Origin: a virus
Reading direction: 5' to 3' (one strand)
Length of the DNA: 64,000 nt
IMG/VR virus record: IMGVR_UViG_3300035670_000170
Span: 4,977 to 68,976 of that record
Shown here: one piece after another, positions 1-60,568 of the stretch
Layout of the letters: the number at the start of each line of letters is the position of its first letter
Position numbering within the stretch: position 1 is the stretch's first letter
Notes under the pieces: generated by a model
Databases searched by the model: none
Told to the model about the DNA's origin: nothing
Seen by the model: only the letters and a program-made list of their open reading frames with translations
Made by a program: the position numbers and the translations under genes

Positions 1-360
1 TGCGTAGGCTTCTCGTTGGTCTATGGTGCCGAAGTCAAGGAGGTTGTGTTCTTCGGGGTGTAGCAGTACGATGTTGTCTTTGTTTAGCCTGAACTTGGGG
101 TACATCCCCTTGTTAAGGATGTGGGCGAATAGGGAGGCAAAAAAGGCCGTCGAAGCATATTGTTCCAACGGCCTACCGCTTAGTTCGCTAAAGTGAGGGC
201 GCTCTGCCCATATCTCCATGAATACTTGTAGTTCCCCTGTTTTTTTTCTTGCGCCCAATAACTTAGGCTTTTTATCTGCCCTGCTGTGCTGGTGATTGCG
301 GCAGTATCCACCACCCCATACGGGGTTTTGGCAGTTTCCGCTTTTGCACTTTTTTGGCAT
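1..360 (-). CDS. HNH-like endonuclease with N-terminal Cys/His cluster (3' end runs off window)
   Basis: Translated by hand, not in the ORF track: MPKKCKSGNCQNPVWGGGYCRNHQ...WAERPHFSELSG...FAHILNKGMYPKFRLNKDNIVLLHPEEHN. H...N...H spacing is HNH-like. Confidence 0.6.
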   Translation of the reverse strand, partial: MPKKCKSGNCQNPVWGGGYCRNHQHSRADKKPKLLGARKKTGELQVFMEIWAERPHFSELSGRPLEQYASTAFFASLFAHILNKGMYPKFRLNKDNIVLLHPEEHNLLDFGTIDQREAYA

Positions 361-466
361 AGGCAAATATAATTCATTATCAACATATAATGTGGTTTTT
401 GTTTATTCTTAATATACACTTAACGATGTTAGCAATGATTTACGTTCTATGCCGAAGGTATAATTG

Positions 467-811
467 TTAGTTCAGTCGAGGGTTTACTTGCGAGGATACA
501 CCTTCTATCATGCCTGCAATTATCTGTCGCTGTATTTCCACGGCTGCAATCAATATAATGTCTGCCTTTGGGGTGTTTTCAATAACCTTGTCGTCAAGCA
601 TTGATATTGCAGAACGTGTGGCTGTCATAAGGTCAACGCTTGTGTCAGCCATATAGTCCATCAGGGCGTCAATTTGTTCTTCTATTAGTTCTGACAGTTC
701 GTTGTCACCGTGTTCAAAGCTGAACGCGAGTTCAAGCGACACCATGCGTAATTGGGCGTATTCATGGTTTAAGACATTAGCGATTATGCTTGCCCTTTTT
801 GATTGTGTCAT
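467..811 (-). CDS. hypothetical protein
   Basis: 114-aa ORF co-oriented with its neighbours, A-rich leader. Confidence 0.7.
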   Translation of the reverse strand: MTQSKRASIIANVLNHEYAQLRMVSLELAFSFEHGDNELSELIEEQIDALMDYMADTSVDLMTATRSAISMLDDKVIENTPKADIILIAAVEIQRQIIAGMIEGVSSQVNPRLN

Positions 812-823
812 AGCGTTGGTTTT

Positions 824-1120
824 TTAGATTCCTATTAGCTGCATGGCCTCATCTACGGATTCTACGATGTGGTATTTGACGCCTACGTTGTTTAGCTTGT
901 CGGCGCATATTTGTTCACCCTCTGATAGCTTACGTGCCGATGGCGATTTTTTGCCGTCCTTTATTTCAACGATGTATGACTTTCCCCTAAAGTTTACAAT
1001 CATGTCAAAGGCGTTCTTTAGCTGGTGGGTGTCTATAACGTATGCCCCTACCTTTTCAAGCGCCTTTTTTATTTCGTTATGGTTTGCGTCCTTCCTTGAT
1101 GCTGTCCGTACTGTTGCCAT
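824..1120 (-). CDS. VRR-NUC family endonuclease (Holliday-junction resolvase-like)
   Basis: R-KDANHNEI..AL...G...D.....DMIV......IVEIKDG PD-(D/E)XK pattern. Start moved to MATVRT at 1120. Confidence 0.75.
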   Translation of the reverse strand: MATVRTASRKDANHNEIKKALEKVGAYVIDTHQLKNAFDMIVNFRGKSYIVEIKDGKKSPSARKLSEGEQICADKLNNVGVKYHIVESVDEAMQLIGI

Positions 1121-1186
1121 AGTGTAAAGATACGAATTGGATATGGCACGGTTTTTTTGCCGCACCCGATTTGGTATCTGATGGCA

Positions 1187-1214
1187 ATAAAAAAGGGGAG
1201 CGTTAACTCCCCTT
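1187..1214 (-). terminator. intrinsic terminator after SSB-like gene
   Basis: GGGGAG/CTCCCC stem with an A-run on the left (U-tail on the minus strand). Confidence 0.6.
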
Positions 1215-1240
1215 GGCTTAGTAAATCGGGCGCGACAATC

Positions 1241-1876
1241 TTAGAAAGGCAGATCATCTTCACCACCATCGTCAAACTTCTCATTACGGGCAAGTAGTTC
1301 CCCTTTCTTACTGGGGCGTTCTACACCACTTGGCACGTGTTGACTTGGGATAGTGTCAATCTTCTGTGGTATCTCTGACTTAACAAGCGACACAATGTGT
1401 TCCTCAAGGCGTGTCTTGTCAGAAATATCCTTTCCCTTAAACTTCACCTTATCAATGAACTTAGCCTGTTCGTCAAGGTCAAGTTTCCACGGTAGCTTTT
1501 GACCGTTCAGTTCCACATACGCGTTGTTGTACTTGTCTTTCTTGTACACGCTGATACGTAGCTTACCTGCAAGGCTATCGGCAGACAGCAGGCTGTTGAG
1601 GATAGATATACCCATTGATGAGCCAGTGTGGATGTCCACCTTGTATTGCTCATCCCCGTCGTGCATATTCAGCACGGCTTTGGTTTTCTTTTCCCCTTCG
1701 TACTCATACTCGCGGAACTCAATACCCGCAAGGGTGCCTTCGATGGTGTCAAAGGAATCAATCTCCTCATAGGAATCACCCATCTTTGCGATGCGCTTAA
1801 AGGCGGGTTTGTCTTCTGTGCTTCCTTTTAGGCGCAGGAAAATAGCGCTTCGTGCTTCACTGTTTGAGAGAGCCAT
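1241..1876 (-). CDS. putative single-stranded DNA-binding protein
   Basis: Beta-rich body, acidic tail ending DDGGEDDLPF, located in the replication module. Confidence 0.6.
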   Translation of the reverse strand: MALSNSEARSAIFLRLKGSTEDKPAFKRIAKMGDSYEEIDSFDTIEGTLAGIEFREYEYEGEKKTKAVLNMHDGDEQYKVDIHTGSSMGISILNSLLSADSLAGKLRISVYKKDKYNNAYVELNGQKLPWKLDLDEQAKFIDKVKFKGKDISDKTRLEEHIVSLVKSEIPQKIDTIPSQHVPSGVERPSKKGELLARNEKFDDGGEDDLPF

Positions 1877-1895
1877 GTTTATTTGGATTTAATGG

Positions 1896-2279
1896 TTACT
1901 TTTTGAATTTGCCCCTGAACATTTCGTCTATTATCAGACCTATTTGGCGGGCTTCCCGTTGGTTAATACGTATTTCTTCTTCCTTACCTTTTACTGTGGC
2001 GTTTAGGTTCTTGTCGACAGCAAATGTACCGTTTTCCAACTTAATTTCAACGTTTTTGTGGTGGAAATTGTGCAAATAATCAGGCACGCGAATACGACCA
2101 GCGCATAGCGCCCTTAGTATTTCTTCACTATCATACTGTCCCTTGTGGCGTATCTGTACCCACTCCCGCCCGTGGGGGGTGTCTACCTTTAGTTCGTACC
2201 GGAAGCCCTCTACAAACTCAAGTATGTGGGGGATACGGTAAGGGAAGTTCTGACTGAAGTATTGTTCTGCTTTATCCAT
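1896..2279 (-). CDS. hypothetical protein
   Basis: ORF between DnaB and SSB. Start moved to MDKAEQ after an A-rich leader. Confidence 0.65.
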   Translation of the reverse strand: MDKAEQYFSQNFPYRIPHILEFVEGFRYELKVDTPHGREWVQIRHKGQYDSEEILRALCAGRIRVPDYLHNFHHKNVEIKLENGTFAVDKNLNATVKGKEEEIRINQREARQIGLIIDEMFRGKFKK

Positions 2280-2316
2280 GTTAGTTGTTTTAGTTGGTAA
2301 ATCGGGCGCGACAATA

Positions 2317-3693
2317 TCAAAAAGGCACATCATCTTCGCCATACTCCCTCCTACGGTCAAAGTCTGCATTAGGTTTCACTACTGATTGAAATTCTTTTCT
2401 CCATTCACTAAACACACTCTGTTCTGGGTCAAACCTAAGTCTTATATCAGCAAGCGCACCGCCCCTGTGTTTAGATATGATAAACTCCGCCATGCCCACA
2501 GTGCTAAACCCTTCCTCATCCTGCATATCCCCATAGTATTCGGGTCGGTGTATAAACGCCACCATATCCGCATCCTGTTCAATAGCCCCCGATTCCCGTA
2601 GATTAGATAGCGTAGGTCTTTTACTGCCACGCTGCTCAACCGAACGGCTTAGCTGGCTTAGTGCAATAACAGGTATGTCCAACTCTTTCGCCAACACCTT
2701 TAGCCCACGGCTGATGCTACTAACTTCGTTCTCCCTGTTACCACCTTTCTCACCTGTCAACAGTTGCAGGTAGTCCAGTACAATCAGGTCAAGCCCATGC
2801 CTTGCCTTGTGGCGTGCCGCCATGCCGCGTAGTTCGTGGATGGTTAACGACGGGTCATCCCATATCCACAGGTTGTCCGTGGTGATTGCCGTAACGCCAT
2901 TATGTACCTTGTTCCAGTCAAGTAGCTTCGGTCGCCTAAAGGACGTGGTGTTGTATCCTGTTACGCGGGATAGTCGCCGCTTGTGTATTTCGTTGTTATT
3001 CATCTCAAGGCTGACCACCACGACCTTCTTTTTGAATTGCAGGGCTGCGTTATCTGCCATGTTCACGGCTAACATTGACTTACCCATTGCCGGACGTGCC
3101 GCAAGGATAATCAGGCTACTCTTTTGCCATCCCCCTGTTACCCTGTCAATGTCGTGGTACCCTGATGGGACACCTGTTATACCGTCTGATTCAATACTTG
3201 ATTCAATGTCCTTTATTACGTCCCTTAGTTGCTCTGCTGTTGTTTGGTGCGCCCGTTTTGGCATCGCTGATACATCCATAAGCCTTTTCGCGGCGTCTGT
3301 CAGTAACGTGTTAATAGGCTTTTTGATGTCTTGCGCGTCCGTGTATAGACCCCCAGCGTATGTGATTGTCTTACGTCGGATGTCAAGGTTGCATAGTAGG
3401 TCAATATACTCATCTAAGTGCCGTGCTGACGGGGCTACATTAAGTGATTCGGACAGGTACACGGCATCTACCTCACCGTATAGTTCCCGCATTTCGGTGG
3501 CTACCGTGACTAAGTTCACCGTCTTGCCCTTTTTGAACAGGGACATGGCGGCTTTGTATATCATGTTGTTATACTTATCGTAGAACGCTGTTTCAGGGAG
3601 TGCCGTGGCGCAGTCAAGGATGGCGTCGCTGTGCGATAGGATTGTGCCTATTACCCTACGTTCTAAGTCTAAGTCGTGTGGTGTTTCTGTCAT
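2317..3693 (-). CDS. dnaB: replicative DNA helicase DnaB
   Basis: N-terminal DnaB domain, Walker A AARPAMGKS, SLEM, LDYLQL, LSQLSR, LRESGAIEQDAD, KHRGG. Confidence 0.97.
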   Translation of the reverse strand: MTETPHDLDLERRVIGTILSHSDAILDCATALPETAFYDKYNNMIYKAAMSLFKKGKTVNLVTVATEMRELYGEVDAVYLSESLNVAPSARHLDEYIDLLCNLDIRRKTITYAGGLYTDAQDIKKPINTLLTDAAKRLMDVSAMPKRAHQTTAEQLRDVIKDIESSIESDGITGVPSGYHDIDRVTGGWQKSSLIILAARPAMGKSMLAVNMADNAALQFKKKVVVVSLEMNNNEIHKRRLSRVTGYNTTSFRRPKLLDWNKVHNGVTAITTDNLWIWDDPSLTIHELRGMAARHKARHGLDLIVLDYLQLLTGEKGGNRENEVSSISRGLKVLAKELDIPVIALSQLSRSVEQRGSKRPTLSNLRESGAIEQDADMVAFIHRPEYYGDMQDEEGFSTVGMAEFIISKHRGGALADIRLRFDPEQSVFSEWRKEFQSVVKPNADFDRRREYGEDDVPF

Positions 3694-3743
3694 TTATTCT
3701 TTGTTGGTTCGCCCGATTTAGCTGCTTCTGTTTAATTATCGTT

Positions 3744-3786
3744 GGGGGATAAACGCTATAAATACGCCACAAGCCCCCAGTTAGCC
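3744..3786 (+). other. conserved array-head site (attI-like), copy 1
   Basis: GGGGGATAAACGCTATAAATACGCCACAAGCCCCCA-GTTAGCC. Confidence 0.8.
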
Positions 3787-3792
3787 GTAATT

Positions 3793-4059
3793 CTAATCAC
3801 GCCAAGTGATGTGCATTGCTTCTAACTTATCGCCAAGTAACGAACTGCCATAGTTTTCAAACTTCATTTTTAGTGAAGGATATACTTCTAAATCATTTGG
3901 GCATTGTATTTTAAATGGTAGCTTTCGTTTATCTTCTGAAATTTGTAATGCTTCTAAAATGAAGTCATTCAAACTTTTGTCTTCGGAAGAAGAACTACGG
4001 ATAACAACGTATTGCTGAACATTGCCATCTTCATCTGTTATTTGAACTTTGTATTCCAT
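3793..4059 (-). CDS. cassette hypothetical protein (paralog of 61130..61393)
   Basis: 88 aa, closely similar to the array D copy. First ~20 codons lie inside the att hairpin. Confidence 0.85.
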   Translation of the reverse strand: MEYKVQITDEDGNVQQYVVIRSSSSEDKSLNDFILEALQISEDKRKLPFKIQCPNDLEVYPSLKMKFENYGSSLLGDKLEAMHITWRD

Positions 4060-4132
4060 ATCAACTTTTTATTTTAAATTAAATATTTGTGCTTCTAAAT
4101 TGGCAACGTCAGCAATACGCAAAACGTTAGGC
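3999..4132 (+). other. attC-like hairpin A1
   Basis: GGATAAC; arm CGTATTGCTGAACATTGCCA; loop; arm TGGCAACGTCAGCAATACG; AAAAC; GTTAGGC. Confidence 0.8.
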
Positions 4133-4140
4133 ACAATTAA

Positions 4141-4317
4141 TTAAGCAGCATTCGGCCAATCATAATAAATTTGCTTAGTTCGCCAAAACCAAAAAGTGTA
4201 ACCGAAGCATTCGACAAACATCGCTTCAAATTTCTTTTCACCTGTTTTGTAATTTGTGTGGAAAAACATTTTAGAGTTCCACTTTTTGTTTTTTGATTTG
4301 TACTTTTTAAAAACCAT
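4141..4317 (-). CDS. cassette hypothetical protein (58 aa)
   Basis: MVFKKYKSKNKKWNSKMFF...DWPNAA, fills cassette A2, below the ORF-track cut-off. Confidence 0.65.
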   Translation of the reverse strand: MVFKKYKSKNKKWNSKMFFHTNYKTGEKKFEAMFVECFGYTFWFWRTKQIYYDWPNAA

Positions 4318-4335
4318 TTTCGTAAAATTAACTGT

Positions 4336-4429
4336 GCCTAACAGCGTATATGTGCAATACGCTTCAAGCGGTTAGTAATAATTTAAAGTTTTGTCATTGC
4401 GTACTGCACATATACGCAAAACGTTATGC
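4336..4429 (+). other. attC-like hairpin A2
   Basis: GCCTAAC-A-GCGTATATGTGCAATACGC...GCGTACTGCACATATACGC-AAAAC-GTTATGC. Confidence 0.85.
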
Positions 4430-4464
4430 CCAGAATTGACGTTACCAAATCGGGCGCGGCAAAA

Positions 4465-5121
4465 TTACTTGTCCCCGTCAGGATTCCATTCTTCTTTCTT
4501 AGCCCTTCCTTGTACAACCCATTCTAATGGGTCACGGTTAATATCCCTGCCGAACACAACACCAAACTTTCTGTACGCACCCTTATAGGCTAAACTCTCT
4601 GCTAACGGTAGCTTCTTTTGAAGTTCAAAGGGGTCGCGCATATCCTCAAGTAACGCACATCCAACGCCCATGTGTGACACGCCCGATTTGCTATCGCACA
4701 CCTCTGCCACCACCACCACGTTACCTACCTCTACGCGCCATTCCACAATGCGTGACGACCGAAAAGGCATCAGCACGTCGGCAGTGTCCTCAAGGTACTG
4801 TATTGGCACGTAGTTGACGTCGGGTAGCTGCGGGTGCTTGCGTATTGCGTCAGGCGGCACAGGGGAAGAAAATGATTGTGAAACCTTTTCCTCTACGGGC
4901 TGGTCAACCTTTTCTTTTGGCTGCTTATTTTTGGGTGTAATCAGTTTTATTTCGTCTATCTCGATTGACCAACGGGAGCCTGTGCCGCCTGACTTTGGGT
5001 TGTCCCAAGAAACATCTACGTCTTTTTTGGACACTAAGGCGACTGTCCCTGTACCGCCCTTGCGTATAAACTCATTACCAACAAGGCTCTTAACCCTGTC
5101 GCCTACCTTAAAATTGCTCAT
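4465..5121 (-). CDS. Sak/Rad52-like ssDNA annealing protein with N-terminal KVGDRV domain
   Basis: YVPIQYLE...GVG...AESLAYKGAYRKFGVVFGRDINR resembles Rad52/Sak, adjacent to an exonuclease. Confidence 0.65.
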   Translation of the reverse strand: MSNFKVGDRVKSLVGNEFIRKGGTGTVALVSKKDVDVSWDNPKSGGTGSRWSIEIDEIKLITPKNKQPKEKVDQPVEEKVSQSFSSPVPPDAIRKHPQLPDVNYVPIQYLEDTADVLMPFRSSRIVEWRVEVGNVVVVAEVCDSKSGVSHMGVGCALLEDMRDPFELQKKLPLAESLAYKGAYRKFGVVFGRDINRDPLEWVVQGRAKKEEWNPDGDK

Positions 5122-5137
5122 GTTAAACTATTGTTAA

Positions 5138-5878
5138 TTAAACTTCAATTACTTCTTCAATGGGTGTGTAGCTGCGCTTATCACACAGTTTGTTGAACAG
5201 GCAGTCAGCACACACGTTACAGTCCTTCGTGGGTATAGGCTCAAACTTGTTAACCATGTAGTCACGCACTTGGTCAATGATACGGTAGTGGTTTTCCATC
5301 GCTTCACTGCTGATACGGGCGCGGATAAACTTTATCCACCCGCTTTTGCCGAACACCAGATAGTAAAACGGGCGCACCACCCCATCGCGCAGGTAAGAAC
5401 CAAGGGTATAGTGTACAGCCTGTGTATGGTCAAGTGCATCAGGGACGCCCCACCCATACTTACCCTTGTCGTCTTTACGTGATGCAGTGTACTTAATGTC
5501 AATGATAACACTACTACCTTCGTAATCAGCAATGCAGTCAAGGTGAAACACCAAGTCCCCTTCAATGATTTCCGGCTGTACCTCTGTCACCTTTATGCCC
5601 ATCTTTGGTAGTGTGTTTTGCTTGTGGTACTTCGCCTGTGATACGGCTTGTGCTGCCCATGCGTAGCTTCCTTCCCCACGCTGTTTCTTTGGCGGCTCGA
5701 TCGTCTGGTGTCCCCGTGCGGCACCTATTAGTTCCTGTTCAAAGAGTAGGCCGGAGTACATTGCCTCTGTTGGCTCCGACCGTAGGCCGTCGATGTACTT
5801 TAGCTTGAGCATATAACGGCATCCGTCACGGTCTTGTACGTCCTTTATTAGGGACTGACTTATTAGTAGTTTATTCAT
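5138..5878 (-). CDS. PD-(D/E)XK nuclease (Cas4/RecB-like exonuclease)
   Basis: SQS..K...C, LDCI...IIDIK, Q...Y, C-terminal CxxC..C.....C cluster. Confidence 0.8.
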   Translation of the reverse strand: MNKLLISQSLIKDVQDRDGCRYMLKLKYIDGLRSEPTEAMYSGLLFEQELIGAARGHQTIEPPKKQRGEGSYAWAAQAVSQAKYHKQNTLPKMGIKVTEVQPEIIEGDLVFHLDCIADYEGSSVIIDIKYTASRKDDKGKYGWGVPDALDHTQAVHYTLGSYLRDGVVRPFYYLVFGKSGWIKFIRARISSEAMENHYRIIDQVRDYMVNKFEPIPTKDCNVCADCLFNKLCDKRSYTPIEEVIEV

Positions 5879-5920
5879 GTTGATTTGTTTTTTTGTTGCG
5901 CCCGTTTTGGTAAGGGAATC

Positions 5921-5963
5921 GGGGGCTAAACGCTATAAATACGCCACAAGCCCCGTGTTAGCT
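5921..5963 (+). other. conserved array-head site, copy 2
   Basis: GGGGGCTAAACGCTATAAATACGCCACAAGCCCCGT-GTTAGCT. Confidence 0.8.
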
Positions 5964-6034
5964 GCAAGTGCTACATTGGTACTTCGTATAAAACTTTGGT
6001 GTTCAAAAATTTTATATAAAAAGCCACCGCACTT

Positions 6035-6754
6035 TTAAAACAATTCATATTCTGTTTTTAATAATTTATCTGTAACAAAATCAAAACAACTTTTATCAAT
6101 ATCACCTGCAATGTAATTTCTGCCTTCTTTTTTTGCTGTTACAAGCATATTGCCACCACCCATAAAGGGGTCTATTATTAGCCCTCCTTTTGGAGAGAAG
6201 CATCTAATCAATATTTGACATAGTTCTATTGGCTTTGTTGGTATATTACCCCCATCTTCTCTTTTTCTTTCTATGTTTAATAAATCATTCAGCCAAATCC
6301 CTTCTTTGCTATTAAAAAATGGGTTTGATTTTTCTTTATATCCATCAAAAACTAAATACCCTTTATCTCCTTGTTTGGTATTTGGGCTATACGGCATACC
6401 CGTTCTCGGATTAAAAAAGAAACTTTTTCCGCAACACCAAAATATTTTATGATACGAGTATGTAGGCATTTTATTTGATACCCAGTTACCTGTTTTTATA
6501 TACTTCCATATTATCTCATTCCTAAAACAATAGTTTATTTGGTTTCTTAAATCGTAATCATACGGTTTCTTTGTAAACATTAGAATATTGCCAGTTTCTT
6601 TTAACACTCTAAAACATTCACTTACCAAGCCATCGGCAATAAGTTTTACCCAATCTTGATAATTTGGGTCTAAAAATATTAAGTCGGCAGAATTATCATC
6701 AACTCCTGCAAGTAGTTCAAAACAGTCTTTTTGGTATATTTTATTTAATTCCAT
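6035..6754 (-). CDS. DNA N6-adenine/N4-cytosine methyltransferase (beta class)
   Basis: DLIFLDPNY (motif IV-like), PTKP..L, DPFMGGG (motif I). Start moved to MELNKIY. Confidence 0.88.
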   Translation of the reverse strand: MELNKIYQKDCFELLAGVDDNSADLIFLDPNYQDWVKLIADGLVSECFRVLKETGNILMFTKKPYDYDLRNQINYCFRNEIIWKYIKTGNWVSNKMPTYSYHKIFWCCGKSFFFNPRTGMPYSPNTKQGDKGYLVFDGYKEKSNPFFNSKEGIWLNDLLNIERKREDGGNIPTKPIELCQILIRCFSPKGGLIIDPFMGGGNMLVTAKKEGRNYIAGDIDKSCFDFVTDKLLKTEYELF

Positions 6755-6800
6755 CGTTTTTTTCTTTTTGTTTTTCTGTTTTCGTTTTAAATTGTGCATC

Positions 6801-6846
6801 CTACTAAACTAATCGGGTCTGCATATATTATCTGATATTTCTTCAT
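6801..6846 (-). pseudogene. 5' remnant of an MT-A70-type methyltransferase
   Basis: Reads MKKYQIIYADP then stops; compare MKYEIIYADP at 63384. Confidence 0.5.
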
Positions 6847-6867
6847 GTTTCTAAATTAAATTCGTAA

Positions 6868-6896
6868 ATAAATACGCCACAAGCCCCCAGTTATAG
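6868..6896 (+). other. partial array-head site, copy 3
   Basis: ATAAATACGCCACAAGCCCCCA-GTTATAG, right half only. Confidence 0.75.
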
Positions 6897-7049
6897 GTAA
6901 TAAAATTTGCTAAGTACCCAACATCCTGTAATTATGATGCAACTTACTGTTACGGTTCCTATTCCTATCCATACCAAGTCTCTGTTGGTTACATAAGGTT
7001 CATACCATTCACCACCTTCTCCTTTATCAAGCCATTCTTTTAATTTCAT
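6891..7049 (-). CDS. cassette small membrane protein (52 aa)
   Basis: MKLKEWLDKGEGGEWYEPYVTNRDLVWIGIGTVTVSCIIITGCWVLSKFYYL; its TAA stop lies in the GTTA core. Confidence 0.65.
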   Translation of the reverse strand: MKLKEWLDKGEGGEWYEPYVTNRDLVWIGIGTVTVSCIIITGCWVLSKFYYL

Positions 7050-7067
7050 ATCGCAAATTTTACATAC

Positions 7068-7122
7068 CTATAACAGCAAATAAGAAACATTAAAACGATT
7101 GCTTATTTGCAAAACGTTATGC
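7068..7122 (+). other. attC-like hairpin B2
   Basis: CTATAAC-A-GCAAATAAG...CTTATTTGC-AAAAC-GTTATGC. Confidence 0.8.
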
Positions 7123-7131
7123 GTAATAAGA

Positions 7132-7371
7132 TTAATCGCAGTCTTGACATTTATAGTCTTGTTTGATTATACCCAATTCCACGGGGCAATCTTCATAACC
7201 ATATTTACAACCATGCTCAAAACAGCAATGTGTTCTATGTACTCCCCAACGCTCTTGTGGAATTGACGTTGTTGCAGACTTACTACGCACAACACGTAAT
7301 AAATCCAATTGCTCACTTTCGTACTGTTTAATGAGTGTCTTTGCTTCGTTGTATTGTTCTTCTGTTATCAT
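7132..7371 (-). CDS. cassette Cys/His-rich hypothetical protein
   Basis: 79 aa with HRTHCC..HGCKYG..DCPV. N-terminus is encoded inside the att hairpin. Confidence 0.75.
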   Translation of the reverse strand: MITEEQYNEAKTLIKQYESEQLDLLRVVRSKSATTSIPQERWGVHRTHCCFEHGCKYGYEDCPVELGIIKQDYKCQDCD

Positions 7372-7419
7372 AGTTTTGTTCTTTTAATTCGCAACTGTAT
7401 TTATTACCAACCGTTACCA
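7287..7419 (+). other. attC-like hairpin B3
   Basis: GCACAAC; GTAATAAATCCAATTGC...GCAACTGTATTTATTAC; CAACC; GTTACCA. Confidence 0.78.
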
Positions 7420-7434
7420 AATCGGGCGATACAA

Positions 7435-7965
7435 TTAAGATTCGCTGCTTTCAAGCCCCTTCAGGTAGTCTTGGTAACGGGTGTATGCTTCAGTTAATTC
7501 GTCAGGTTGAAAATCAAGTTGATGAATGTACTCTTTGTCACACCACTCCCCAAACGTCATTACCTTATTAAGTTCACTCACCTTAACGTGTCCAACGGTT
7601 CCGTCGCAAAACTGGACAAGCACAAGTGGTTCGCTAATAACACCCACCCTTGCGCCTTTGTAGGTTGCGTCGTAATATATTTCAGCGGGTTCGGGCTTCT
7701 CTTGTTTGGGGAGTTCGACGTACGATTCGTCTACCCAATCAGTAGGCGTTCCGGTTTTCTCCGGCTCGATGGGTTGGAGATACTCCTGTCGCTGACCAAA
7801 CCTCAGGCTACTACTTTGGAAACGATTGTATATCATGTCCTGCGAATCCCAAATTACCCACGGAGTTGATTGATCGTCCTCAGCTACCGTTCCGGTTGCT
7901 CCGTACTTTAACACACCGTTGTCGACAATGTTACGCACCCTGTCGCCTTTCTTAAATTTTGCCAT
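7435..7965 (-). CDS. hypothetical protein with N-terminal KKGDRV domain
   Basis: 176-aa ORF whose N-terminus is shared with 4465..5121 and 12848..13528. Confidence 0.75.
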   Translation of the reverse strand: MAKFKKGDRVRNIVDNGVLKYGATGTVAEDDQSTPWVIWDSQDMIYNRFQSSSLRFGQRQEYLQPIEPEKTGTPTDWVDESYVELPKQEKPEPAEIYYDATYKGARVGVISEPLVLVQFCDGTVGHVKVSELNKVMTFGEWCDKEYIHQLDFQPDELTEAYTRYQDYLKGLESSES

Positions 7966-8275
7966 TTTCTTTGATTTTACTTGTTCTACGTTTACGATTG
8001 CCTTTGGGTTGCGAAAATTCCGAAATACTTTTCACCTTTCCAACTTTTATTAGGTCGAAAGTTCTTTTCTGTCGGTTATTCATTCGCCTAACGGATGAGT
8101 GGTGGATGAGGATAGGCGTAACGATTTGCCCGTCATCCTTTTGGTACTGTGGCATAGCAAAACGGGCGCCCACCCAAAAATAGTCCGGCATATTCTCATC
8201 TCCCATTGGTATGACAACACACCCATTGACGTGTCTTACTTCTATCACGTCTACTTCTATTACGTAGTATGCCAT
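7952..8275 (-). CDS. hypothetical protein
   Basis: Start moved to MAYY, directly after the repeated leader. Confidence 0.65.
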   Translation of the reverse strand: MAYYVIEVDVIEVRHVNGCVVIPMGDENMPDYFWVGARFAMPQYQKDDGQIVTPILIHHSSVRRMNNRQKRTFDLIKVGKVKSISEFSQPKGNRKRRTSKIKENGKI

Positions 8276-8355
8276 AGCTTGAATGGTTAAAATTGACACG
8301 TTTGCACTTGGTTCTTTTCACTATCATAAAAAGCTGTCCGGTGTTAGCGGACAAC
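8273..8355 (-). repeat. ~85-bp duplicated leader (second copy 9454-9543)
   Basis: CATAGCTTGAATGGTTAAA.TTGACACGTTTGCACTTGGTTCTTTTCACTATCA...AGCTGTCCG..CGGACA.CT occurs at both loci. Confidence 0.9.
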
Positions 8356-8499
8356 TGCGGGGGTCGGGGCGCCCGATTAGGCAATGGATTCTTCGATTAG
8401 CTGAATCGCAATTTGTACAAGTTTAGCACGTGCCGCCCTTGCCTGATTTTACTTCTTCAATCTTTTTCATTGTTCTGTGTGTTTTTCAGTTAATTACCC

Positions 8500-8748
8500 T
8501 CATACTGTGCCAGTTATTTCTATTGCATTTCCATAGGTATAATGAGGATGGCTTTTTGTCCCAGTTTTATAAAAGTTGAAGAAACTATCATAATAACTCA
8601 TTACCCCATTGTTATCCCAACATCTTAATGCTCTTAATGTAAATGTGTTTTCTTTTACTTCACATACTACACCAGTTTCAATCATTCCTTTTTCTTCAAA
8701 AGTTACCGTTTGGTTTAGTTTTACGTTATCAAATTTCCTTGTTTTCAT
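8500..8748 (-). CDS. hypothetical protein (AT-rich accessory)
   Basis: 82-aa ORF with A-rich leader. Confidence 0.7.
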   Translation of the reverse strand: MKTRKFDNVKLNQTVTFEEKGMIETGVVCEVKENTFTLRALRCWDNNGVMSYYDSFFNFYKTGTKSHPHYTYGNAIEITGTV

Positions 8749-8831
8749 TGTTCTTTGTTTTTTACGTTCTTTGTTTCTGAAAGGTTACGATTCAAATATC
8801 ATTTTACCAAATCGGGCGCGGCAAAAATAGG

Positions 8832-8927
8832 TCAGCCATACGTCACCCACATAAGGCCAAACATCACCAAGGCAATGAACACAACATACAACACTATGTA
8901 CAATAACACGGTTACAATGGTTCTCAT
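8832..8927 (-). CDS. small membrane peptide (31 aa)
   Basis: MRTIVTVLLYIVLYVVFIALVMFGLMWVTYG; ATG overlaps the upstream stop; paralog at 9560..9697. Confidence 0.55.
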   Translation of the reverse strand: MRTIVTVLLYIVLYVVFIALVMFGLMWVTYG

Positions 8928-9193
8928 GCGCCAGCGTGTTTAATCTTGCCGCGTGAACGCGTTACCCTGTCCTGTGCTGCGCGCAGCAATAAGTCACAAC
9001 AACATTCCTCTATTTCATCCATCGTGTAGCAGGTGGATTCGTCTACTTGATCTTTCACGTGATCGTTATATGCGTCGTACATCGAAGCGTTAGTAATGGT
9101 CGCGCTTACAGACATATCGCCAACCTCCCCATACACCTTGTAATGTCCGCTGCTGTTTGTTAAACCTATGCGGTGAAATTCTACTGCTTTCAT
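8924..9193 (-). CDS. hypothetical protein
   Basis: Start moved to MKAVEF after the AAATAGAAACC leader shared with 10535 and 11792. Confidence 0.7.
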   Translation of the reverse strand: MKAVEFHRIGLTNSSGHYKVYGEVGDMSVSATITNASMYDAYNDHVKDQVDESTCYTMDEIEECCCDLLLRAAQDRVTRSRGKIKHAGA

Positions 9194-9240
9194 GGTTTCT
9201 ATTTGTTTAGTTGTTAATAATTCCTTACCAAATCGGGCGC

Positions 9241-9456
9241 TCAAAACCCATATTTCCGCATAACAGACAATATACGTTCGCCCTGCTTTACTGTCATCTG
9301 ACGCGTACCGTTCAACACACCATTGATATAAAAGGATGTAGTACCCGCTTCAATGGCTATGCCCTTTTTATTTATGCCGGGGCGGGAGAAAAATTCCTGC
9401 ATCCTCTTTACGGTGTCTTCGTCTACCTTCGGCATCAATTTTCTTTTTCTTTTCAT
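9241..9456 (-). CDS. Cro/XRE-like helix-turn-helix protein
   Basis: INKKGIAIEAGTTSFYINGVLNGTRQMT fits an HTH pattern. Confidence 0.7.
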   Translation of the reverse strand: MKRKRKLMPKVDEDTVKRMQEFFSRPGINKKGIAIEAGTTSFYINGVLNGTRQMTVKQGERILSVMRKYGF

Positions 9457-9559
9457 AGCTTGAATGGTTAAATTTGACACGTTTGCACTTGGTTCTTTTC
9501 ACTATCACTATCACGCAAAGCTGTCCGATTTTATCGGACAGCTATGGGGTTGGTTGTTG

Positions 9560-9697
9560 TCAGGACCCATACTTGTTTGTTACGGACGCCCATACGCAAA
9601 AAAACAATACAAGAGCTATAAACATGGAGTAAAGCAATATGTACAATAACACAGTCAGTGCCGCGCGCCCACACGGTCGCAATCGTTTACGCGTCAT
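9560..9697 (-). CDS. small membrane peptide (45 aa)
   Basis: MTRKRLRPCGRAALTVLLYILLYSMFIALVLFFCVWASVTNKYGS; paralog of 8832..8927. Confidence 0.5.
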   Translation of the reverse strand: MTRKRLRPCGRAALTVLLYILLYSMFIALVLFFCVWASVTNKYGS

Positions 9698-10535
9698 AAT
9701 GCTCCTCCGCGTTTCCTGTGCTTATTTCGCGCTGAATGAGTGCCGGAAGTTTAGAAAGGTCGTAACATATCAGGTAATTCGCCCACTCTTCTATGTACTG
9801 AAATGCCTGTTCGTTTGTGCAGCCAATAACGGCAATTACTTTTTTTACACTTGCTTCAGTAACTCCTTCGTAAAAAAACGATAACTCTTCTGTAAGTTCA
9901 TGAATGGTTGTGCCGTCCTCCTCTGTTTCGTATTTGTATGCCCAATAATCCCAGCCCGCGCTCTTCCCTGTTTTGCTTCTCTTCTCATTGCCGAACCATA
10001 CAAAATCGTTGTTTCTTTTGTGACTGTCATTGCTGAACCAATTACCGTTCTCCCACTTGCCGGCCTCTTCGTTAATTATATCGTGCCCCCCCTTTGAGTT
10101 TAGAAACAAAAGTTTTGATGAGCCGATATAAGACGATATTAGTTCCCTCTGAACCTCGTTTTTTAGAAAGTCATTAGGCAATCGTTTAAGCATTTCGTTG
10201 AAGTGGAATGTATCTGACCGTAAATTGTCGCCAAGGCCGGAGATTATTCCGTTGTGAACAAATCCCAAGTTTTCAGAAACAAAAAACGGGTGAAGATTTA
10301 CGTACTTTTCGTGACCGCTTGTAGCTATTCGGAAGTGCAGCACTATTTTGCCCTGTATGGATGCGCGCACCGTTTTATATCGTTTCTTAAACTCATCGAA
10401 ATTGTAACTCTTAAACTCGTACAGTTTGCCGTTGTCGGAAAATAACATTCCGGCTCCTTCGGGGTTGTTGTCCCAACTATTTTTCAACTCGTTGTCAGTT
10501 ATTACGCCTTTGGCGTTCAAAATTGCTATACACAT
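9687..10535 (-). CDS. class II glutamine amidotransferase (Ntn hydrolase)
   Basis: N-terminal MC, NPEGAG, HFRIAT, HPF, HNG, SDT, WFSN. Confidence 0.88.
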   Translation of the reverse strand: MCIAILNAKGVITDNELKNSWDNNPEGAGMLFSDNGKLYEFKSYNFDEFKKRYKTVRASIQGKIVLHFRIATSGHEKYVNLHPFFVSENLGFVHNGIISGLGDNLRSDTFHFNEMLKRLPNDFLKNEVQRELISSYIGSSKLLFLNSKGGHDIINEEAGKWENGNWFSNDSHKRNNDFVWFGNEKRSKTGKSAGWDYWAYKYETEEDGTTIHELTEELSFFYEGVTEASVKKVIAVIGCTNEQAFQYIEEWANYLICYDLSKLPALIQREISTGNAEEHYDA

Positions 10536-10574
10536 GGTTTCTATTTTTTTATTTGTTGTTACTTTATTTTATTG

Positions 10575-11792
10575 TTATCCCACGTCCTCGCCCTCGTATT
10601 CCTTTGTGAATTTTATCAGTCTGTTTTCAAGTTCTTGCATCCTTTCAAGCGTCGTGTACTGTTCCTGAATTAAAGGTTTCAACGTATCGCGGAAATTTAG
10701 AAACGACTGTCTCGGGCAGTCTGTGGGGTTATTGCAGATATACTCTATCAGACGCGTCCTCCACATCAGCGTATCAAAATTCGGAACAGCGCTAATTATC
10801 CGAATTTCTATCCTGTTTGAATGTATGCGGATGGCTTGGTATTTCGCATTGTCGTTTTTCAGGTCGGCATTGCTTTTCCCTTTACTGTAATCTTTGTTCA
10901 CTCGTCCAAAGTAAAGAGCATAAAATAGTGGCGTATATCCCTTCACCTTATCAAAAAACTCCATGCCAGAAAGTCCCGATTCGCTAACATTTATATGCCC
11001 TCCGCACCTTTCTGACTTGTCAGCGTTGATATGCCGCATCAGTGTTTTGTTGTCCTTTATTGTTTCGCGTATCTTGTCGGGCGCAAGTTCAAAAATGGGG
11101 CTAACGAGTTCAAATCCTGTATCACTGTCTAAACTTCCGTCCCTTTCTTTTATCCAATATGGGCACGTTTCGTTAAATTCACTAATCATCAGTGAATTTC
11201 TTACATCTTCATCCTCCTTCTCTATTTCGTAGCCAATAAAAAACTTGGGGTTTTCTGTAAATTTAACAACATGACCCCTTTCGCCATCGTGGTATCCAAT
11301 CACATACTCCTCCTCCGGTTCGTAGTGGTACTCTTGGTCGGACTCCCAGAAGTACGCGTTGTCAATATGTGTTATATCACCGTCATACATCACCACTAAA
11401 TCGTGATACTCCAGCGCATCGTCATCGTAATAATCGCCCCGATACTCATGTAATCCCGCATCACTAACCGCCGTTTCACTGTATATGGACTGTCCGCGGC
11501 CTACATACACATCTCGAAAATCGCTCGTATGTTCTTCGTGATATTCGCAGAACGCCACATCCTCAAGTAGGCGAACATCACCCTCTAACGTTATACAATA
11601 ACTATCATGCGAATAGGCCTGCCTATCGTGAAAAAATACTTCGTCATTCGCGCACTGTTCAGCCGTGCAGGTTTCATCCTTTATTCCGGCAATAATAGCG
11701 GGCAAATGGTTGCTATGCACGTTCACAATTTCGCGGGCCTGTTCTTTGTCGTCGCAAATTGTCAGCAGGTCTCTTAATTCCTTGGTTTTCAT
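10575..11792 (-). CDS. putative phage amidoligase (COOH-NH2 ligase)
   Basis: GYEIE, DGSLD..GFELVSP, CGGHIN, KY.A, IEIR, with an acidic Cys/His N-terminal region; next to the amidotransferase. Confidence 0.8.
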   Translation of the reverse strand: MKTKELRDLLTICDDKEQAREIVNVHSNHLPAIIAGIKDETCTAEQCANDEVFFHDRQAYSHDSYCITLEGDVRLLEDVAFCEYHEEHTSDFRDVYVGRGQSIYSETAVSDAGLHEYRGDYYDDDALEYHDLVVMYDGDITHIDNAYFWESDQEYHYEPEEEYVIGYHDGERGHVVKFTENPKFFIGYEIEKEDEDVRNSLMISEFNETCPYWIKERDGSLDSDTGFELVSPIFELAPDKIRETIKDNKTLMRHINADKSERCGGHINVSESGLSGMEFFDKVKGYTPLFYALYFGRVNKDYSKGKSNADLKNDNAKYQAIRIHSNRIEIRIISAVPNFDTLMWRTRLIEYICNNPTDCPRQSFLNFRDTLKPLIQEQYTTLERMQELENRLIKFTKEYEGEDVG

Positions 11793-12847
11793 GGTTTCTA
11801 TTTGTTTATTTGTTTTACGTTGTTTTGTGCCGTTGTGTTACCAAATCGGGCGCCTCAATTAAAAGAGTAAGCATACCTTTTAGCTTCCATTGCAAGCCCC
11901 CATATAGTAGGGGTGAATTTGTATCGCTTCATGGTTTCTGTGTTTTTAATTATACTTCTTGTACGGCATCAGCGGAAACAAGGTTACAAAAAAATAGCAA
12001 AAAATAACCACGAATTTTATGCCGCTGACTGCCAATGAGTTACAGCACGTTGACGAACAAAAAAATTTGAGTTGTCTGTTTTTTTCGTCCAAGCCGTTTG
12101 TAAATGGCTAATTTTCAAACTTTGGCACGGTTTTATTTTTGTGCCGTTGTGTTACCAAATCGGGCGCGACAAAGAAAGGGAAACCACATAGGCACCAACA
12201 GTAGAGAAAGGAACAGACCAACAAAGGTAGCACACACACCAACGGGCAAAGCATGGATGAATTTGGCACGGTGGCTATCCCGTCCTTTAATCCTTTCAAT
12301 CTGCCGGAATTACTTGGCAAACGCCGTGAAACGGGCAACGAACAAACGGTGCGGGTGCCTGTGTTTTGGTTGTGCTGTCCCGTAATATGCATTATGTTAA
12401 ATTGTGGCGCAATTAGTCGGGCTGCGCGGCCTGTTAACTGCCTGAACGTCACCGGACGTACAAAATTTTCCGGTATGGGGCATGGGGTGGCGGAAACGGT
12501 TTTCCTTTGGCCGACCCACCCCCCGATACATACATACAACCCCACCCCGAAGCCTGCGTTGACCAGTTCTAAACGCCAGTGGTTTACAGCCACTTAGGGC
12601 AAACACCAAAAATTTGACTACTATGTATCAACCACTTGCGTATCCATTTCTGCTGGACTAAAATTATTTGTGCGATATTGGCTTTTGTGTTGTTGTTTAT
12701 TTGGCAAAAATGCGAAGTGTTCGCGGGGCGGTACAAATTATGTTTGGTTTGTTTGGGTATTTTGTGGTTAGGCGATGATTTTTGTAAAAATTGGTGTAAC
12801 CTTGTTGTGTGGTGATGCGTAATAATGGGAAACAAAAACACAGAAAT

Positions 12848-13528
12848 ATGACACCGAAGTTTAAGAGGGGAGATAGGGTGAAGAATCTTGTCGAGGATGG
12901 CACAATAAAAAGGGGCGCAACAGGAACAGTGGACGACGACGGGTCTTGCACTCCGTGGGTGATTTGGGATAGTCACGAAATGTTATACTTCGTGATAGGT
13001 GTAGGAATGCGTCGCTATCAAGCAGAATCCGCGCTTGAACTGATTGAGGCGGATGACAAGTCCCTTGCGTTAACCAAAAAACACAGAACAATGAAAAAGA
13101 TTGAGCAGGTAAAAGCAGGCAAGGCTGCTATTGAGAACACCGGAACGGTGGATGAGTTGAACAAGGTGTTAAAGTATTGTTGGCCGGATGATTTAGAATC
13201 CGCCGGGGTTGGTCGTTATTATTACGATGATGAAGGGTGGTGGAGGTCGTATAACCGCAACCCACTTGCAACCTCATACACCGTTCAGGAACTACTCGCG
13301 GAAATTGAGGGTGGTGTTGGCCTTCCAGTTCAGGAGTTGACTTTGCCCACCTTAACCAAGCGGGAGTATTTCGCCTTACAGGGCTTGCTTTCGATATACG
13401 ACACCATAGATATTGTCCCTAATAAAAGCAACGTCGAATACATGGCTAAACTTGCCGTATCAGCCGCCGACGCTCTTATTGCAGAACTTGAAAAATACTC
13501 GGTCAACGCCAATAGCAATGCCCGCTAA
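12848..13528 (+). CDS. composite hypothetical protein (KRGDRV domain plus further segments)
   Basis: Start MTPKFKRGDRV; a second A-rich leader and ATG at 13091; TAA stop lies in a CGCTAAC core. Confidence 0.7.
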   Translation: MTPKFKRGDRVKNLVEDGTIKRGATGTVDDDGSCTPWVIWDSHEMLYFVIGVGMRRYQAESALELIEADDKSLALTKKHRTMKKIEQVKAGKAAIENTGTVDELNKVLKYCWPDDLESAGVGRYYYDDEGWWRSYNRNPLATSYTVQELLAEIEGGVGLPVQELTLPTLTKREYFALQGLLSIYDTIDIVPNKSNVEYMAKLAVSAADALIAELEKYSVNANSNAR

Positions 13529-13563
13529 CTGGTGGCTTGTGGCTACCAGTATCGTTTAGCCCC
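13523..13563 (-). other. conserved array-head site, copy 4 (inverted)
   Basis: Minus strand GGGGCTAAACGATACTGGTAGCCACAAGCCACCA-GTTAGCG. Confidence 0.75.
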
Positions 13564-13624
13564 TTACCAAATCGGGCGAAACAAATAAATCGTGTTGTCC
13601 GTATAACGATCAAATCAAAAGAAC

Positions 13625-27687: not shown

Positions 27688-27774
27688 TTTTGCCGCGCCC
27701 GATTTGGTAACGTTTTGCGGTTATCGGGGGCTAAACGCTATAAAACTACCACAAGCCCCGTGTTATGTGCCATT

Positions 27775-27966
27775 TTAAGAACACTCATCACACAATACAC
27801 TATCTCTTTTGAAAGTCCAACCTTTATGAATTAACTTTTCAGCAAAGTAATAATCATCTGTGTTGTAGTCTTTCTCAACCTTTTTACACTTTTGGCACTG
27901 TATTGAACATTCAACCAGTATTGCTTCTTGGACTTTCTCAAAAATCAGTTCTTCTTTCTTTGTCAT
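27775..27966 (-). CDS. cassette zinc-ribbon-like small protein
   Basis: CQKC...GW......LCDEC; start MTKKEE. Confidence 0.7.
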   Translation of the reverse strand: MTKKEELIFEKVQEAILVECSIQCQKCKKVEKDYNTDDYYFAEKLIHKGWTFKRDSVLCDECS

Positions 27967-27984
27967 AATCTGAATAAAAACGGC

Positions 27985-28077
27985 ACATAACAAAGGCTAA
28001 AAAGCATAGCCTGACAAGTTAGTGCTAATTTTAAAGCGTGATTAATAGGCTACGCTTCTTAGCCTCGACCGTTGGGC
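27985..28077 (+). other. attC-like hairpin C1
   Basis: ACATAAC; AGGCTAAAAAGCATAGCCT...AGGCTACGCTTCTTAGCCT; CGACC; GTTGGGC. Confidence 0.82.
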
Positions 28078-28081
28078 GCAA

Positions 28082-59394: not shown

Positions 59395-59578
59395 CTTTGT
59401 AGGCGGTCGCAAGATGTTTGTGGCCTTCCTGTTGTTCGCCCTTAGTGGGTCGCTGTGGTTCTTTAACCGTGACATCATGGCATCCGACCTGTTCCAGTTT
59501 TGGGAGTGGGTAACGGCAATCCTTGTGGTGGGAAATGTAAGTAGTAAGTTCGCTAATCGGGCGCCCGAAAACAAATGA
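59378..59578 (+). CDS. holin-like membrane protein
   Basis: GGRKMFVA, two TM helices, VGNVSSK. Confidence 0.6.
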   Translation: MQKVYDFVGGRKMFVAFLLFALSGSLWFFNRDIMASDLFQFWEWVTAILVVGNVSSKFANRAPENK

Positions 59579-59606
59579 CATGGAATAGCCTAAAGTAAAT
59601 AGATTG

Positions 59607-59807
59607 ATGGACGGGTTTTGTAAAATTACTATTCAGACCGAGGACGTGCAGAAAGCGCAGCGGATGCTTGCTGTTGACGACGTGTTTATTAAGTTGTGGG
59701 AAGTGTATCAAATCACGACGTGGAACGACCTACGACCAGACCAACAGGTGGAACTGATTAGGGAACACATCAACATAGAACTTTTTGAGCAATACCATTG
59801 GACATGA
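59607..59807 (+). CDS. hypothetical protein
   Basis: Short ORF with ATGA overlap to the endolysin. Confidence 0.55.
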   Translation: MDGFCKITIQTEDVQKAQRMLAVDDVFIKLWEVYQITTWNDLRPDQQVELIREHINIELFEQYHWT

Positions 59808-60286
59808 TAAGGGAATCCATCCTACAATTCGCATCCGCCGACATCGGCACAAGAGGGCCGGAAAAGTACAACGATTGGTTCTACAATCGCGCAGGGTACA
59901 AGTACGCCCATTGCGCTACGGCTGTATCATATTGGTATTTTTGGGCATCGCAGCATTGTGGGATAGCCTACCCATTAGCCGACGTGGAAACACCGGAGGG
60001 GGTAAAGTATGTGCCTATCCTTGTCAACCACGCCCGAAAGCATGGGAAGGTTACGACCGACCCGCAGCCGGGTGACATCGTTTGTTTCGACTGGGACAAG
60101 AACGGCGGGGCTGACCATGTGGGCATCTTTGAAAAGTGGGCCGACCGGAAAGCCGGATTGTTTTATGCTATCGAAGCCAACACAACGCCCGACGGTACTT
60201 ATGGCAGTCAGGATCGCGGAGGGTGGCAGGCGCGGAAGCTACGCCACACACGGCTGGTTATTGCGTTCTGTAATTACTTGGACTGA
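59804..60286 (+). CDS. CHAP-domain endolysin
   Basis: CATAVS, PQPGDIVCFDW, DHVGIF, IEANT. Confidence 0.88.
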   Translation: MIRESILQFASADIGTRGPEKYNDWFYNRAGYKYAHCATAVSYWYFWASQHCGIAYPLADVETPEGVKYVPILVNHARKHGKVTTDPQPGDIVCFDWDKNGGADHVGIFEKWADRKAGLFYAIEANTTPDGTYGSQDRGGWQARKLRHTRLVIAFCNYLD

Positions 60287-60537: not shown

Positions 60538-60568
60538 TACACCGAAGCCAGTATCGTTGAACGGGTAG

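Follow-up and report, generated by a model that had tools for sequence, protein, structure and literature searches.

Hairpins that hold gene starts as probable attC-like recombination sites between early-gene cassettes of a phage genome

The stretch of DNA analysed here, referred to as the window, comprises 64,000 nucleotides of a phage genome (positions 4,977 to 68,976 of IMG/VR record IMGVR_UViG_3300035670_000170, below G000). It makes up the greater part of this record, which is complete at 68,976 bp and has a terminal repeat of 103 bp. The minus strand carries small genes of the early and replication classes at 1-11,800 and 59,400-63,900, and the structural genes lie on the plus strand between these two blocks. 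The early minus-strand genes are arranged in cassettes with hairpins at their boundaries, and it is these hairpins, in particular A1, B3 and D1, that are the subject of this study. All coordinates refer to the plus strand of the window; the gene sense of the cassettes is the minus strand. A sequence-only reading had proposed that these hairpins are recombination (att) sites which also encode the start of the cassette gene.

Cassette A1 extends from 3781 to 4126, i.e. from TTAGCCGT... to the G of GTTAGGC, and in its relatives the homology breaks at these limits. It contains an 88-aa open reading frame (ORF; 3793-4059) that matched no PHROG family. Its att hairpin (3997-4134) has the cores ACGGATAAC (3997-4005) and GTTAGGCAC (4126-4134), a spacer at 4120-4125, outer arms at 4008-4018 and 4109-4119 that are complementary at 11/11 positions, and an inner helix in which 4020-4027 pairs with 4101-4108; the stem has a one-base bulge, and the 90-nt loop holds the leader, the ATG at 4059 and 13 codons. 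Cassette D1 (61119-61457; 87-aa ORF 61130-61393) is a paralogue of A1, with a hairpin at 61331-61465 whose arms (61343-61352 and 61441-61450) are complementary at 10/10 positions and enclose an 88-nt loop with the ATG at 61393. The hairpin labelled B3 (7285-7421) has the cores ACGCACAAC (7285-7293) and GTTACCAAA (7413-7421), a spacer at 7408-7412 and arms at 7296-7312 and 7391-7407 (15/17 complementary), and its loop contains the ATG (7371) of the 79-aa ORF 7132-7371 of cassette B2 (7117-7413). The loops of A1, B3 and D1 (78-90 nt) do, as had been proposed, carry an A-rich leader followed by the ATG and initial codons of an ORF on the minus strand, and the ORFs do run on through the second arm and the GTT-type core (...QQYVVIRS in A1, ...LDLLRVVRS in B3 and ...HLYNVSRS in D1). 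Identity between the A1 and D1 loci is 88%, and three adjacent base pairs of the stem have been exchanged in a compensatory manner, which also agrees with that proposal. On the gene-sense strand the fold z-scores were -2.68 as DNA and -3.39 as RNA for A1, and -2.97 and -3.36, respectively, for D1. In the predicted folds the start ATG sits in the open A-rich loop and is not sequestered.

The members of this family share one layout. In gene sense a cassette reads xxxxxTAAC, a spacer of 5-6 nt, stem, loop, stem, a spacer of 1-3 nt, GTTAyyyyy and the gene body, and it ends with the reverse complement of yyyyy followed by TAAC; on the plus strand every member therefore reads xxxxxTAAC, 1-3 nt, stem, loop, stem, 5-6 nt ending in C, and GTTAyyyyy. 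Loop lengths range from 11 to about 95 nt. A scan of the genome for the arrangement TAAC-spacer-stem...stem-spacer-GTTA gave 9 matches, 8 of them distinct, compared with 0-3 in each of 20 Markov shuffles (10 in total, ~0.5 per shuffle) and 1 in the reversed sequence. In the window, the 9-nt core at the right end of an element is the exact reverse complement of the left-end core of the next element across the gene (eight pairs at 9/9). Complementary cores across the cassette are a signature of integron cassettes.

The arrays begin at a second repeated hairpin of ~40 nt, the P box, which opens with TAAC when read in gene sense and in every case precedes a gene, with the same orientation as that gene. 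Four copies are present in the window (0 expected in shuffles), at 3762, 5939, 6872 and 61100 on the minus strand, just upstream of dnaB, an exonuclease gene, a methyltransferase gene and a 166-aa gene. The box upstream of dnaB (3744-3789) is a GGGGG.../...CCCCC hairpin that ends in the core GTTAGCCGTA and forms the first site of array A; those upstream of the methyltransferase gene (6868-6893) and of the 166-aa gene (61083-61127) are the first sites of arrays B and D, and at the box upstream of the exonuclease gene (5939-5960) no cassette is inserted. P-like boxes lie just before 27762 and at 13521-13570 (plus strand); with these included, four of the boxes are starting points of cassette arrays. 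The stop codons that the sequence-only reading had placed in the opposite core were all found: at 6891 a TAA that is the reverse complement of TTA in GTTATAGG, at 60569 a stop that overlaps GTTAGCCTT, and at 13526 a TAA within GCTAAC, next to the P-like box on the plus strand. The P box may be a phage promoter, a regulatory hairpin or a substitute for attI; inspection by eye revealed no convincing match to the consensus of a Bacteroidota-type promoter, either in the P box or in the long loops. In IMG/VR the 16-mer of the P box occurs at 35 loci, with the full P-box context in one of these only (L011). The remaining loci were rejected, as about two dozen have a single unrelated conserved context in common and the rest resemble chance matches.

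Covariation among A1 homologues, which had been named in advance as a check, is present in the stem. In an alignment of 18 sequences (16 distinct rows), 92.5% of the stem cells are paired and both sides change in 8 of the 19 pairs. The helix that joins the GTTA core to the core beyond the gene body has 96.9% of its cells paired, with changes on both sides in 4 of 10 pairs. For the two helices together the values are 94.1% and 12 of 29 pairs, a level reached by 0 of 500 shuffles, and slid controls on the same alignment left 28-52% of cells paired. The hairpin's own two cores, in this alignment, show no covariation beyond TAAC/GTTA. The ATG is invariant, and the residues encoded by the arm differ between members (QQYVV, HLYNV, RQYNV, FLYDV). 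The stem bases are thus under two constraints, since the ORF reads through the arm and pairing is kept while residues change, and the suggestion that the att site is both coding and structural holds.

The limits of the cassettes are also the places at which homology breaks. A1 has 18 relatives, in contigs of 11 to 640 kb. In the 16 that hold the full unit the flanks diverge directly after the downstream TAAC, and homology starts at the upstream TAAC in 12 of these 16, as it does in the partial copies L139 and L140; L128, L130, L136 and L138 have no TAAC at the upstream start of homology. A related 36-kb phage (G001) has the 166-aa gene, the same P box and the right flank of array D in common with G000, and between the box and this flank it carries three other cassettes with hairpin loops of ~90 nt, each with an ATG; identity between the two genomes ends directly after GTTA. 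For D2, the cassette with the 109-aa ORF, the stretch 61455-61886 is 99% identical in contigs of run X4, from the study of the best holders, and of run X5, and the stretch 61457-61922 is 99% identical in a contig of X8 (X5 and X8 represent two other studies). The left flank differs in each of these copies, with the break at ccGTTATACGC.

Three further observations concern array D. D2 as annotated in the window (61458-61927; ORF 61473-61802) has a degenerate short hairpin at 61869-61927, in which the arms of the window copy no longer pair while the same cassette in the X4 and X5 contigs has a well-paired stem; the window copy resembles a chimera in which two hairpins meet within the loop. In run X1, the best-holding sample, a contig at a depth of 17.8 (compared with ~296) lacks the 105-aa gene at 63537-63862, which is replaced by 32 nt known from G001, and two variants of this array end therefore coexist. 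A joint between 61121 and 61872 in the same run was considered as a deletion and rejected, because the contig represents array B of this phage, placed by the mapping on its paralogues.

A tyrosine recombinase is encoded in three of the five large contigs that carry an A1 relative. In one of these phages (G002) an array of at least 11 elements stops 45 nt before a recombinase gene of 268 aa, and in another (G004) a frameshifted copy follows the A1 cassette. The protein scores 135.9 bits against PF00589, above the cut-off of 27.1, and the R, K, HxxR, H and Y positions are visible by eye in alignments. Its best family match is XerA (186.2 bits), and here it falls below the cut-off of 220, as it does for XerC (154.9, cut-off 335), XerD (151.1, cut-off 330) and the integron-integrase model TIGR02249 (158.6, cut-off 265). 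The best solved relative is the XerC-like protein 4a8e. Residues 182-215 (34 aa) align where VchIntIA/IntI4 (PDB 2a3v) has residues 184-264 (81 aa), a region which we take to be the IntI-specific insertion. Judged from these alignments, the recombinase appears to be compact, Xer-like and without the IntI insertion.

Relatives of this recombinase in IMG/VR number 34 (57-100% identical), and at their loci the elements lie almost entirely on one side of the gene, with 108 upstream (143 kb), 5 downstream (239 kb) and 9 in an antisense scan. An attI-like site, TAAC|TATTATATAT (pattern TAAC|TA..ATATAT), is found 36-58 nt before the ATG in 27 of 29 loci; the pattern has merely 29 matches in 737 kb, 27 of them at recombinase loci. 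The window has no convincing attI-like motif, its one match with two mismatches comparing with 1.8 expected by chance. Among 185,579 prokaryote species genomes there are 14 relatives of the recombinase: two on contigs of metagenome-assembled genomes (MAGs; 53-54% identity), with one hairpin each upstream, and 12 with no hairpin upstream, three of which have less than 2 kb of upstream sequence. Polaribacter phage Freya was rejected as a member, its integrase being 39% identical and its upstream region giving merely 4 weak AT-rich matches, the same on both strands.

We surveyed the 108 elements upstream of recombinase genes and a wider set of 171 elements, 87 of them 110-140 nt long. Loop lengths among the 108 are bimodal, 40 of the loops having 80-99 nt. 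The variable 5 nt of the core match the neighbouring core perfectly in 50 of 82 cases and the hairpin's own partner core in 1 of 82, and cores pair across bodies of up to 3 kb. Mismatches within the stems, read on the gene-sense strand, are G.T in 64 cases and A.C in 16, which suggests that selection favours folding of the gene-sense strand. In the long class (110-140 nt), 60 of the 87 elements contain the start ATG of an ORF 40 or more codons long, at a median of 67 nt after TAAC and 54 nt before GTTA, i.e. the loop holds the ATG and ~18 codons and the ORF runs on into the body by way of the 3' arm and the GTTA core. In these 60 elements the 20 nt before the ATG are 54% A and 7% G, and a Shine-Dalgarno-like pentamer precedes the ATG in none of them. 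At the other end, 32 of 164 elements have an ORF whose stop codon is the TAA of the TAAC core. Among the short hairpins, the 11-nt loop TCGTTTTAATG (gene sense) is kept in 13 of 19 with wholly different stems, and short elements were found in 9 of 39 sources; this loop may be a protein-binding or regulatory motif.

To which gene a hairpin belongs can be read from 183 pairs of similar hairpins, of which 57 share the downstream body only, one shares the upstream sequence only and two share both. The moving unit is therefore the hairpin plus its downstream body, with the site at the 5' end of its own gene; ownership by the upstream gene, as in the usual integron orientation, was ruled out by the ratio of 1 linked pair to 57. 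Hairpin modules also occur between unrelated neighbours, and in 114 such pairs identity stops close to the cores, no more than 4-6 nt from the G of GTTA in 81 pairs and no more than 4-6 nt from the C of TAAC in 94. A search for common N-terminal peptides on unrelated C-termini was successful: seven clusters of hairpins that hold a start are found on 3 to 6 unrelated bodies each, e.g. the leader type ...DNTDKKLHISDV... on five bodies, and L139 has the A1 leader in frame with a methyltransferase-like body of 265 aa. Of the module swaps that the sequence-only reading had suggested, the N-terminal kind is thus seen, as leader peptides on unrelated bodies, and none was seen at the C-terminus. In 43 of the 64 distinct bodies the reading frame takes the core GTT as a codon (binomial p = 3e-8 for a null of one third, which is not exact because the frame reading TAG or TAA is disfavoured).

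We consider it probable that the hairpins are attC-like sites which act through their fold and bound the mobile cassettes of a phage-carried integron-like system. The homology breaks, the complementarity of the cores, the covariation and the link to a recombinase with an attI-like site are all as expected of att-type recombination sites, in line with the original proposal. In the mechanism that we envisage, the gene-sense strand would fold as single-stranded DNA and be cut in the 5' TAAC. The excised circle would bring together the two variable cores of the cassette, and their pairing is what would be expected if the cores meet there. The cognate enzyme would be the compact Xer-like tyrosine recombinase of the related phages; as it is absent from the window genome, either it acts in trans here or the arrays are relics. 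The cassettes of the window genome would have been inserted at the TAAC-bearing P boxes upstream of core genes. The hairpin module would act as a portable translation start and N-terminal tag for any body joined to it, with the long loop supplying the translation start and perhaps a promoter.

Several results weigh against this interpretation. The tyrosine-recombinase domain PF00589 has no match in the whole window genome, even at E <= 1. The fold energy of B3 on the gene-sense strand is not significant (z of +0.91 as DNA and +0.06 as RNA), and in the single relative of B3 the hairpin is retained with no compensatory change. Of the 87 long elements, 27 contain no ORF of 40 codons or more that begins with ATG. 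In L127 the two arms are of differing types and do not pair, and L128 and L130 retain the gene while the 5' arm is missing, so that the hairpin is dispensable for the gene. As 123 of the 183 pairs of similar hairpins share neither flank, simple cassette transfer alone is insufficient to account for their distribution. The spacers are asymmetric (5-6 compared with 1-3 nt), unlike those of canonical attC sites. The criteria of the layout scan were taken from the window's own elements, and the shuffle counts of the covariation analysis are not probabilities, because the aligned sequences are related.

The explanation that competes best with an integron-like system of the phages' own, although we judge it unlikely, is that these are ordinary integron cassettes whose natural enzyme is a host IntI, the phage having picked up or mimicked attC, and that the Xer-like recombinase is an unrelated integrase or dimer-resolution enzyme. 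The topology is indeed that of integron cassettes, the window genome has no recombinase of its own, and P12002L_attC2, a site of Polaribacter phage P12002L, is reported to be recombined by IntI1 in E. coli (PMC9892861, section 3.4 and Figure 2 legend). However, the arrays abut the Xer-like gene through TAAC|TATTATATAT in 27 of 29 loci, with 108 elements upstream and 5 downstream, and a hairpin lies upstream in merely two of the 14 prokaryote relatives, both on MAG contigs. The reversed gene orientation and the asymmetric spacers also differ from what such cassettes would have.

We regard as very improbable the explanation that the hairpins are boundary repeats promoting homologous or illegitimate recombination with no dedicated enzyme, to which the promoter/stem-loop cassettes of T4-type phages may be likened. 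Phage early regions are mosaic, hairpin modules are found between unrelated neighbours with breaks at TAAC in 94 and at GTTA in 81 of the 114 pairs, and the 61869 hairpin and L127 look like chimeras that arose by crossover within the loop, all of which such repeats would account for. However, homologous exchange would need more than the 4 bases that are conserved per junction; covariation links the variable cores on either side of the body, and the link to the recombinase and its attI-like site argues for an enzyme. Equally little credence can be given to a role at the RNA level only, in which the hairpins, as stems in early mRNAs, would control how these are translated, degraded or processed and would take no part in recombination. 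In favour of such a role, the gene-sense strand folds better (64 G.U-compatible mismatches compared with 16), the RNA fold z-scores of A1 and D1 are -3.4 and the structure encloses the start codon. Against it, the breaks in homology between unrelated genomes fall precisely at the cores, core pairing spans bodies as long as 3 kb, there is the link of the elements to the recombinase and attI-like site, and an Rfam scan of the window matched no family.

Beyond the attC-like nature of the hairpins, we put forward tentatively, and as a possibility rather than as the probable case, a joint reading in four parts, i.e. a phage-borne integron platform that would consist of (i) a compact Xer-like recombinase without the IntI insertion, (ii) the adjoining attI-like TAAC|TATTATATAT, (iii) a portable hairpin expression module that would provide the leader, the start codon and an N-terminal tag of 18-20 residues, and (iv) cassette birth at GTTA, where any ORF body might be joined in frame and heads might be swapped via both cores. 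The phages that carry it are probably phages of Bacteroidota. If the reading is true, the birth of cassettes, an unsettled matter for integrons, would have left a visible trace in the junctions, and integron-type capture would reach a phage-borne platform with a different, simpler recombinase and with methyltransferases among its cargo. Since the junctions lie in reading frames and the same leaders stand on unrelated proteins, the joining of a gene to an att site becomes directly testable. One stretch of 130 nt that serves as folded recombination signal, translation start and coding sequence is a clean natural case of overlapping constraints, with covariation visibly paid for in amino-acid changes. 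For annotation it means that many short phage ORFs start inside hairpins that appear intergenic, and that the first ~20 residues may be a shared tag outside the protein's fold.

The remaining sites of the window, all on the minus strand, follow the same plan with variations. In array A, cassette A2 (4127-4423; 58-aa ORF 4141-4317) has a hairpin at 4334-4431 with a 19-bp stem and a 36-nt loop (fold z = -4.44), and its cores are complementary at 9/9 positions. In array B, cassette B1 (6891-7116) contains a 52-aa ORF (6891-7049) with its stop in the core, cores complementary at 9/9 positions and a short hairpin (7066-7124) with the loop CATTAAAACGA. The cores GTTACCAAA and TTGGTAAC at 7413-7478 are merely 66 nt apart and overlap the 3' end of a 176-aa ORF; they may represent an empty or decayed cassette. 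Among the structural genes, 27740-28079 comprises a P-like box, one cassette and a hairpin at 27983-28079, with cores complementary at 9/9 positions.

In array D, the core pair GTTAGGCAA / TTGCCTAAC, 51 nt apart, is followed by a 13-bp stem (61971-61983 with 62446-62458; whole element 61919-62472) whose 462-nt 'loop' encloses two whole ORFs of 76 and 59 aa (62005-62235 and 62248-62427). Cores and spacers are correct here, and the adjoining 'body' is merely 33 nt and contains the conserved 11-nt loop motif; the element looks like a site whose loop became cargo. The next cassette (62465-62818) has a 74-aa ORF (62479-62703) and a hairpin at 62750-62818. It is followed by one at 62811-63498, with a short hairpin at 63440-63498 (loop CATTAAAACGA), that carries a split, putatively MT-A70-like methyltransferase, so assigned from a DPAW motif read by eye. 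The two ORFs (62827-63168 and 63181-63384; 113 and 67 aa, respectively) lie within the single cassette, and the split may be a frameshift, a sequencing error or real.

Elsewhere in the genome, an N-terminal KFK.GDRV...GTGTV domain stands on differing C-termini in four proteins (4465-5121, 7435-7965, 12815-13528 and G000 789-1298), two of which match PHROGs 7955 and 13152. The hairpins have no part in this domain shuffling. A single ORF of 2784 aa (48226-56580, plus strand) lies inside the structural module. In a collection of phage isolates, a DNA search with 3700-8300 gave a single irrelevant match of 90 nt and a tblastn search with A1 gave none. Relatives of DnaB, none of them more than 40% identical, were not used.

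Among known systems, the closest likeness is to integron attC sites and to clusters of attC sites lacking integron-integrases (CALINs). An attC is defined by extrahelical bases and a roughly symmetric unpaired central spacer, and in the usual integron cassette the ORF runs toward the attC, so that the site is 3' of the gene, a rule that is not absolute. The present sites share with attC the imperfect inverted repeats, the conserved AAC/GTT cores and the variable stems and loops; they have two inverted-repeat pairs with AAC/GTT cores, each core is complementary to the core across the cassette and not to its own partner, and they occur in arrays in which, as in CALINs, methyltransferases are common cargo. 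They differ from attC in that the site is at the 5' end of the gene, with the gene pointing the other way, in that the loop of the long class holds the leader, the ATG and ~18 codons, and in that the complementary cores are 9-10 nt long. A complete integron has an adjacent intI with the insertion and an attI; the window genome lacks the former and shows no convincing copy of the latter. CALINs have been reported in virulent phages, including one in P12002L that carries methyltransferases (Qi et al. 2023, PMC9892861). In P12002L we find the same short hairpins upstream of gp35, gp36 and gp38 (30,010-30,060 of that phage being among the loop positions), and those of gp35 and gp36 have an 11-nt loop identical to that of the window's short sites; phage attC sites of the short type are therefore already known.

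The recombinase of the related phages resembles IntI in belonging to the Xer/IntI branch and in that its gene is beside an attI-like site at the end of the array, pointing away from it. It differs from IntI in its length of 268 aa, its score below the TIGR02249 cut-off, its lack of the insertion region and its absence from the window genome. In the literature we found nothing on phage arrays accompanied by a Xer-like recombinase that has an attI-like site of its own. Sites of the dif type are 28-bp duplexes. In the pdif modules of Acinetobacter plasmids, as described in PMC7399989, genes are bracketed by sites for Xer recombinases. The present system is like these in having XerA as the best match of its recombinase and genes between recombinase sites, and differs in that the sites are long hairpins of variable sequence and the recombinase falls below the XerA cut-off.

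Effects of att sites and cassettes on expression form the last point of comparison. One study reportedly dealt with attC stems and translation. ORF-less cassettes have been described as having promoter activity (bioRxiv 10.1101/427781). We found nothing in the literature on start codons inside att loops or on shared leader peptides, and the main text of PMC9892861 has 0 occurrences of 'start codon'. Compared with these effects of attC and attI on expression, the att site described here itself contains the translation start and the N-terminal codons, and the same leader peptide stands on unrelated proteins.

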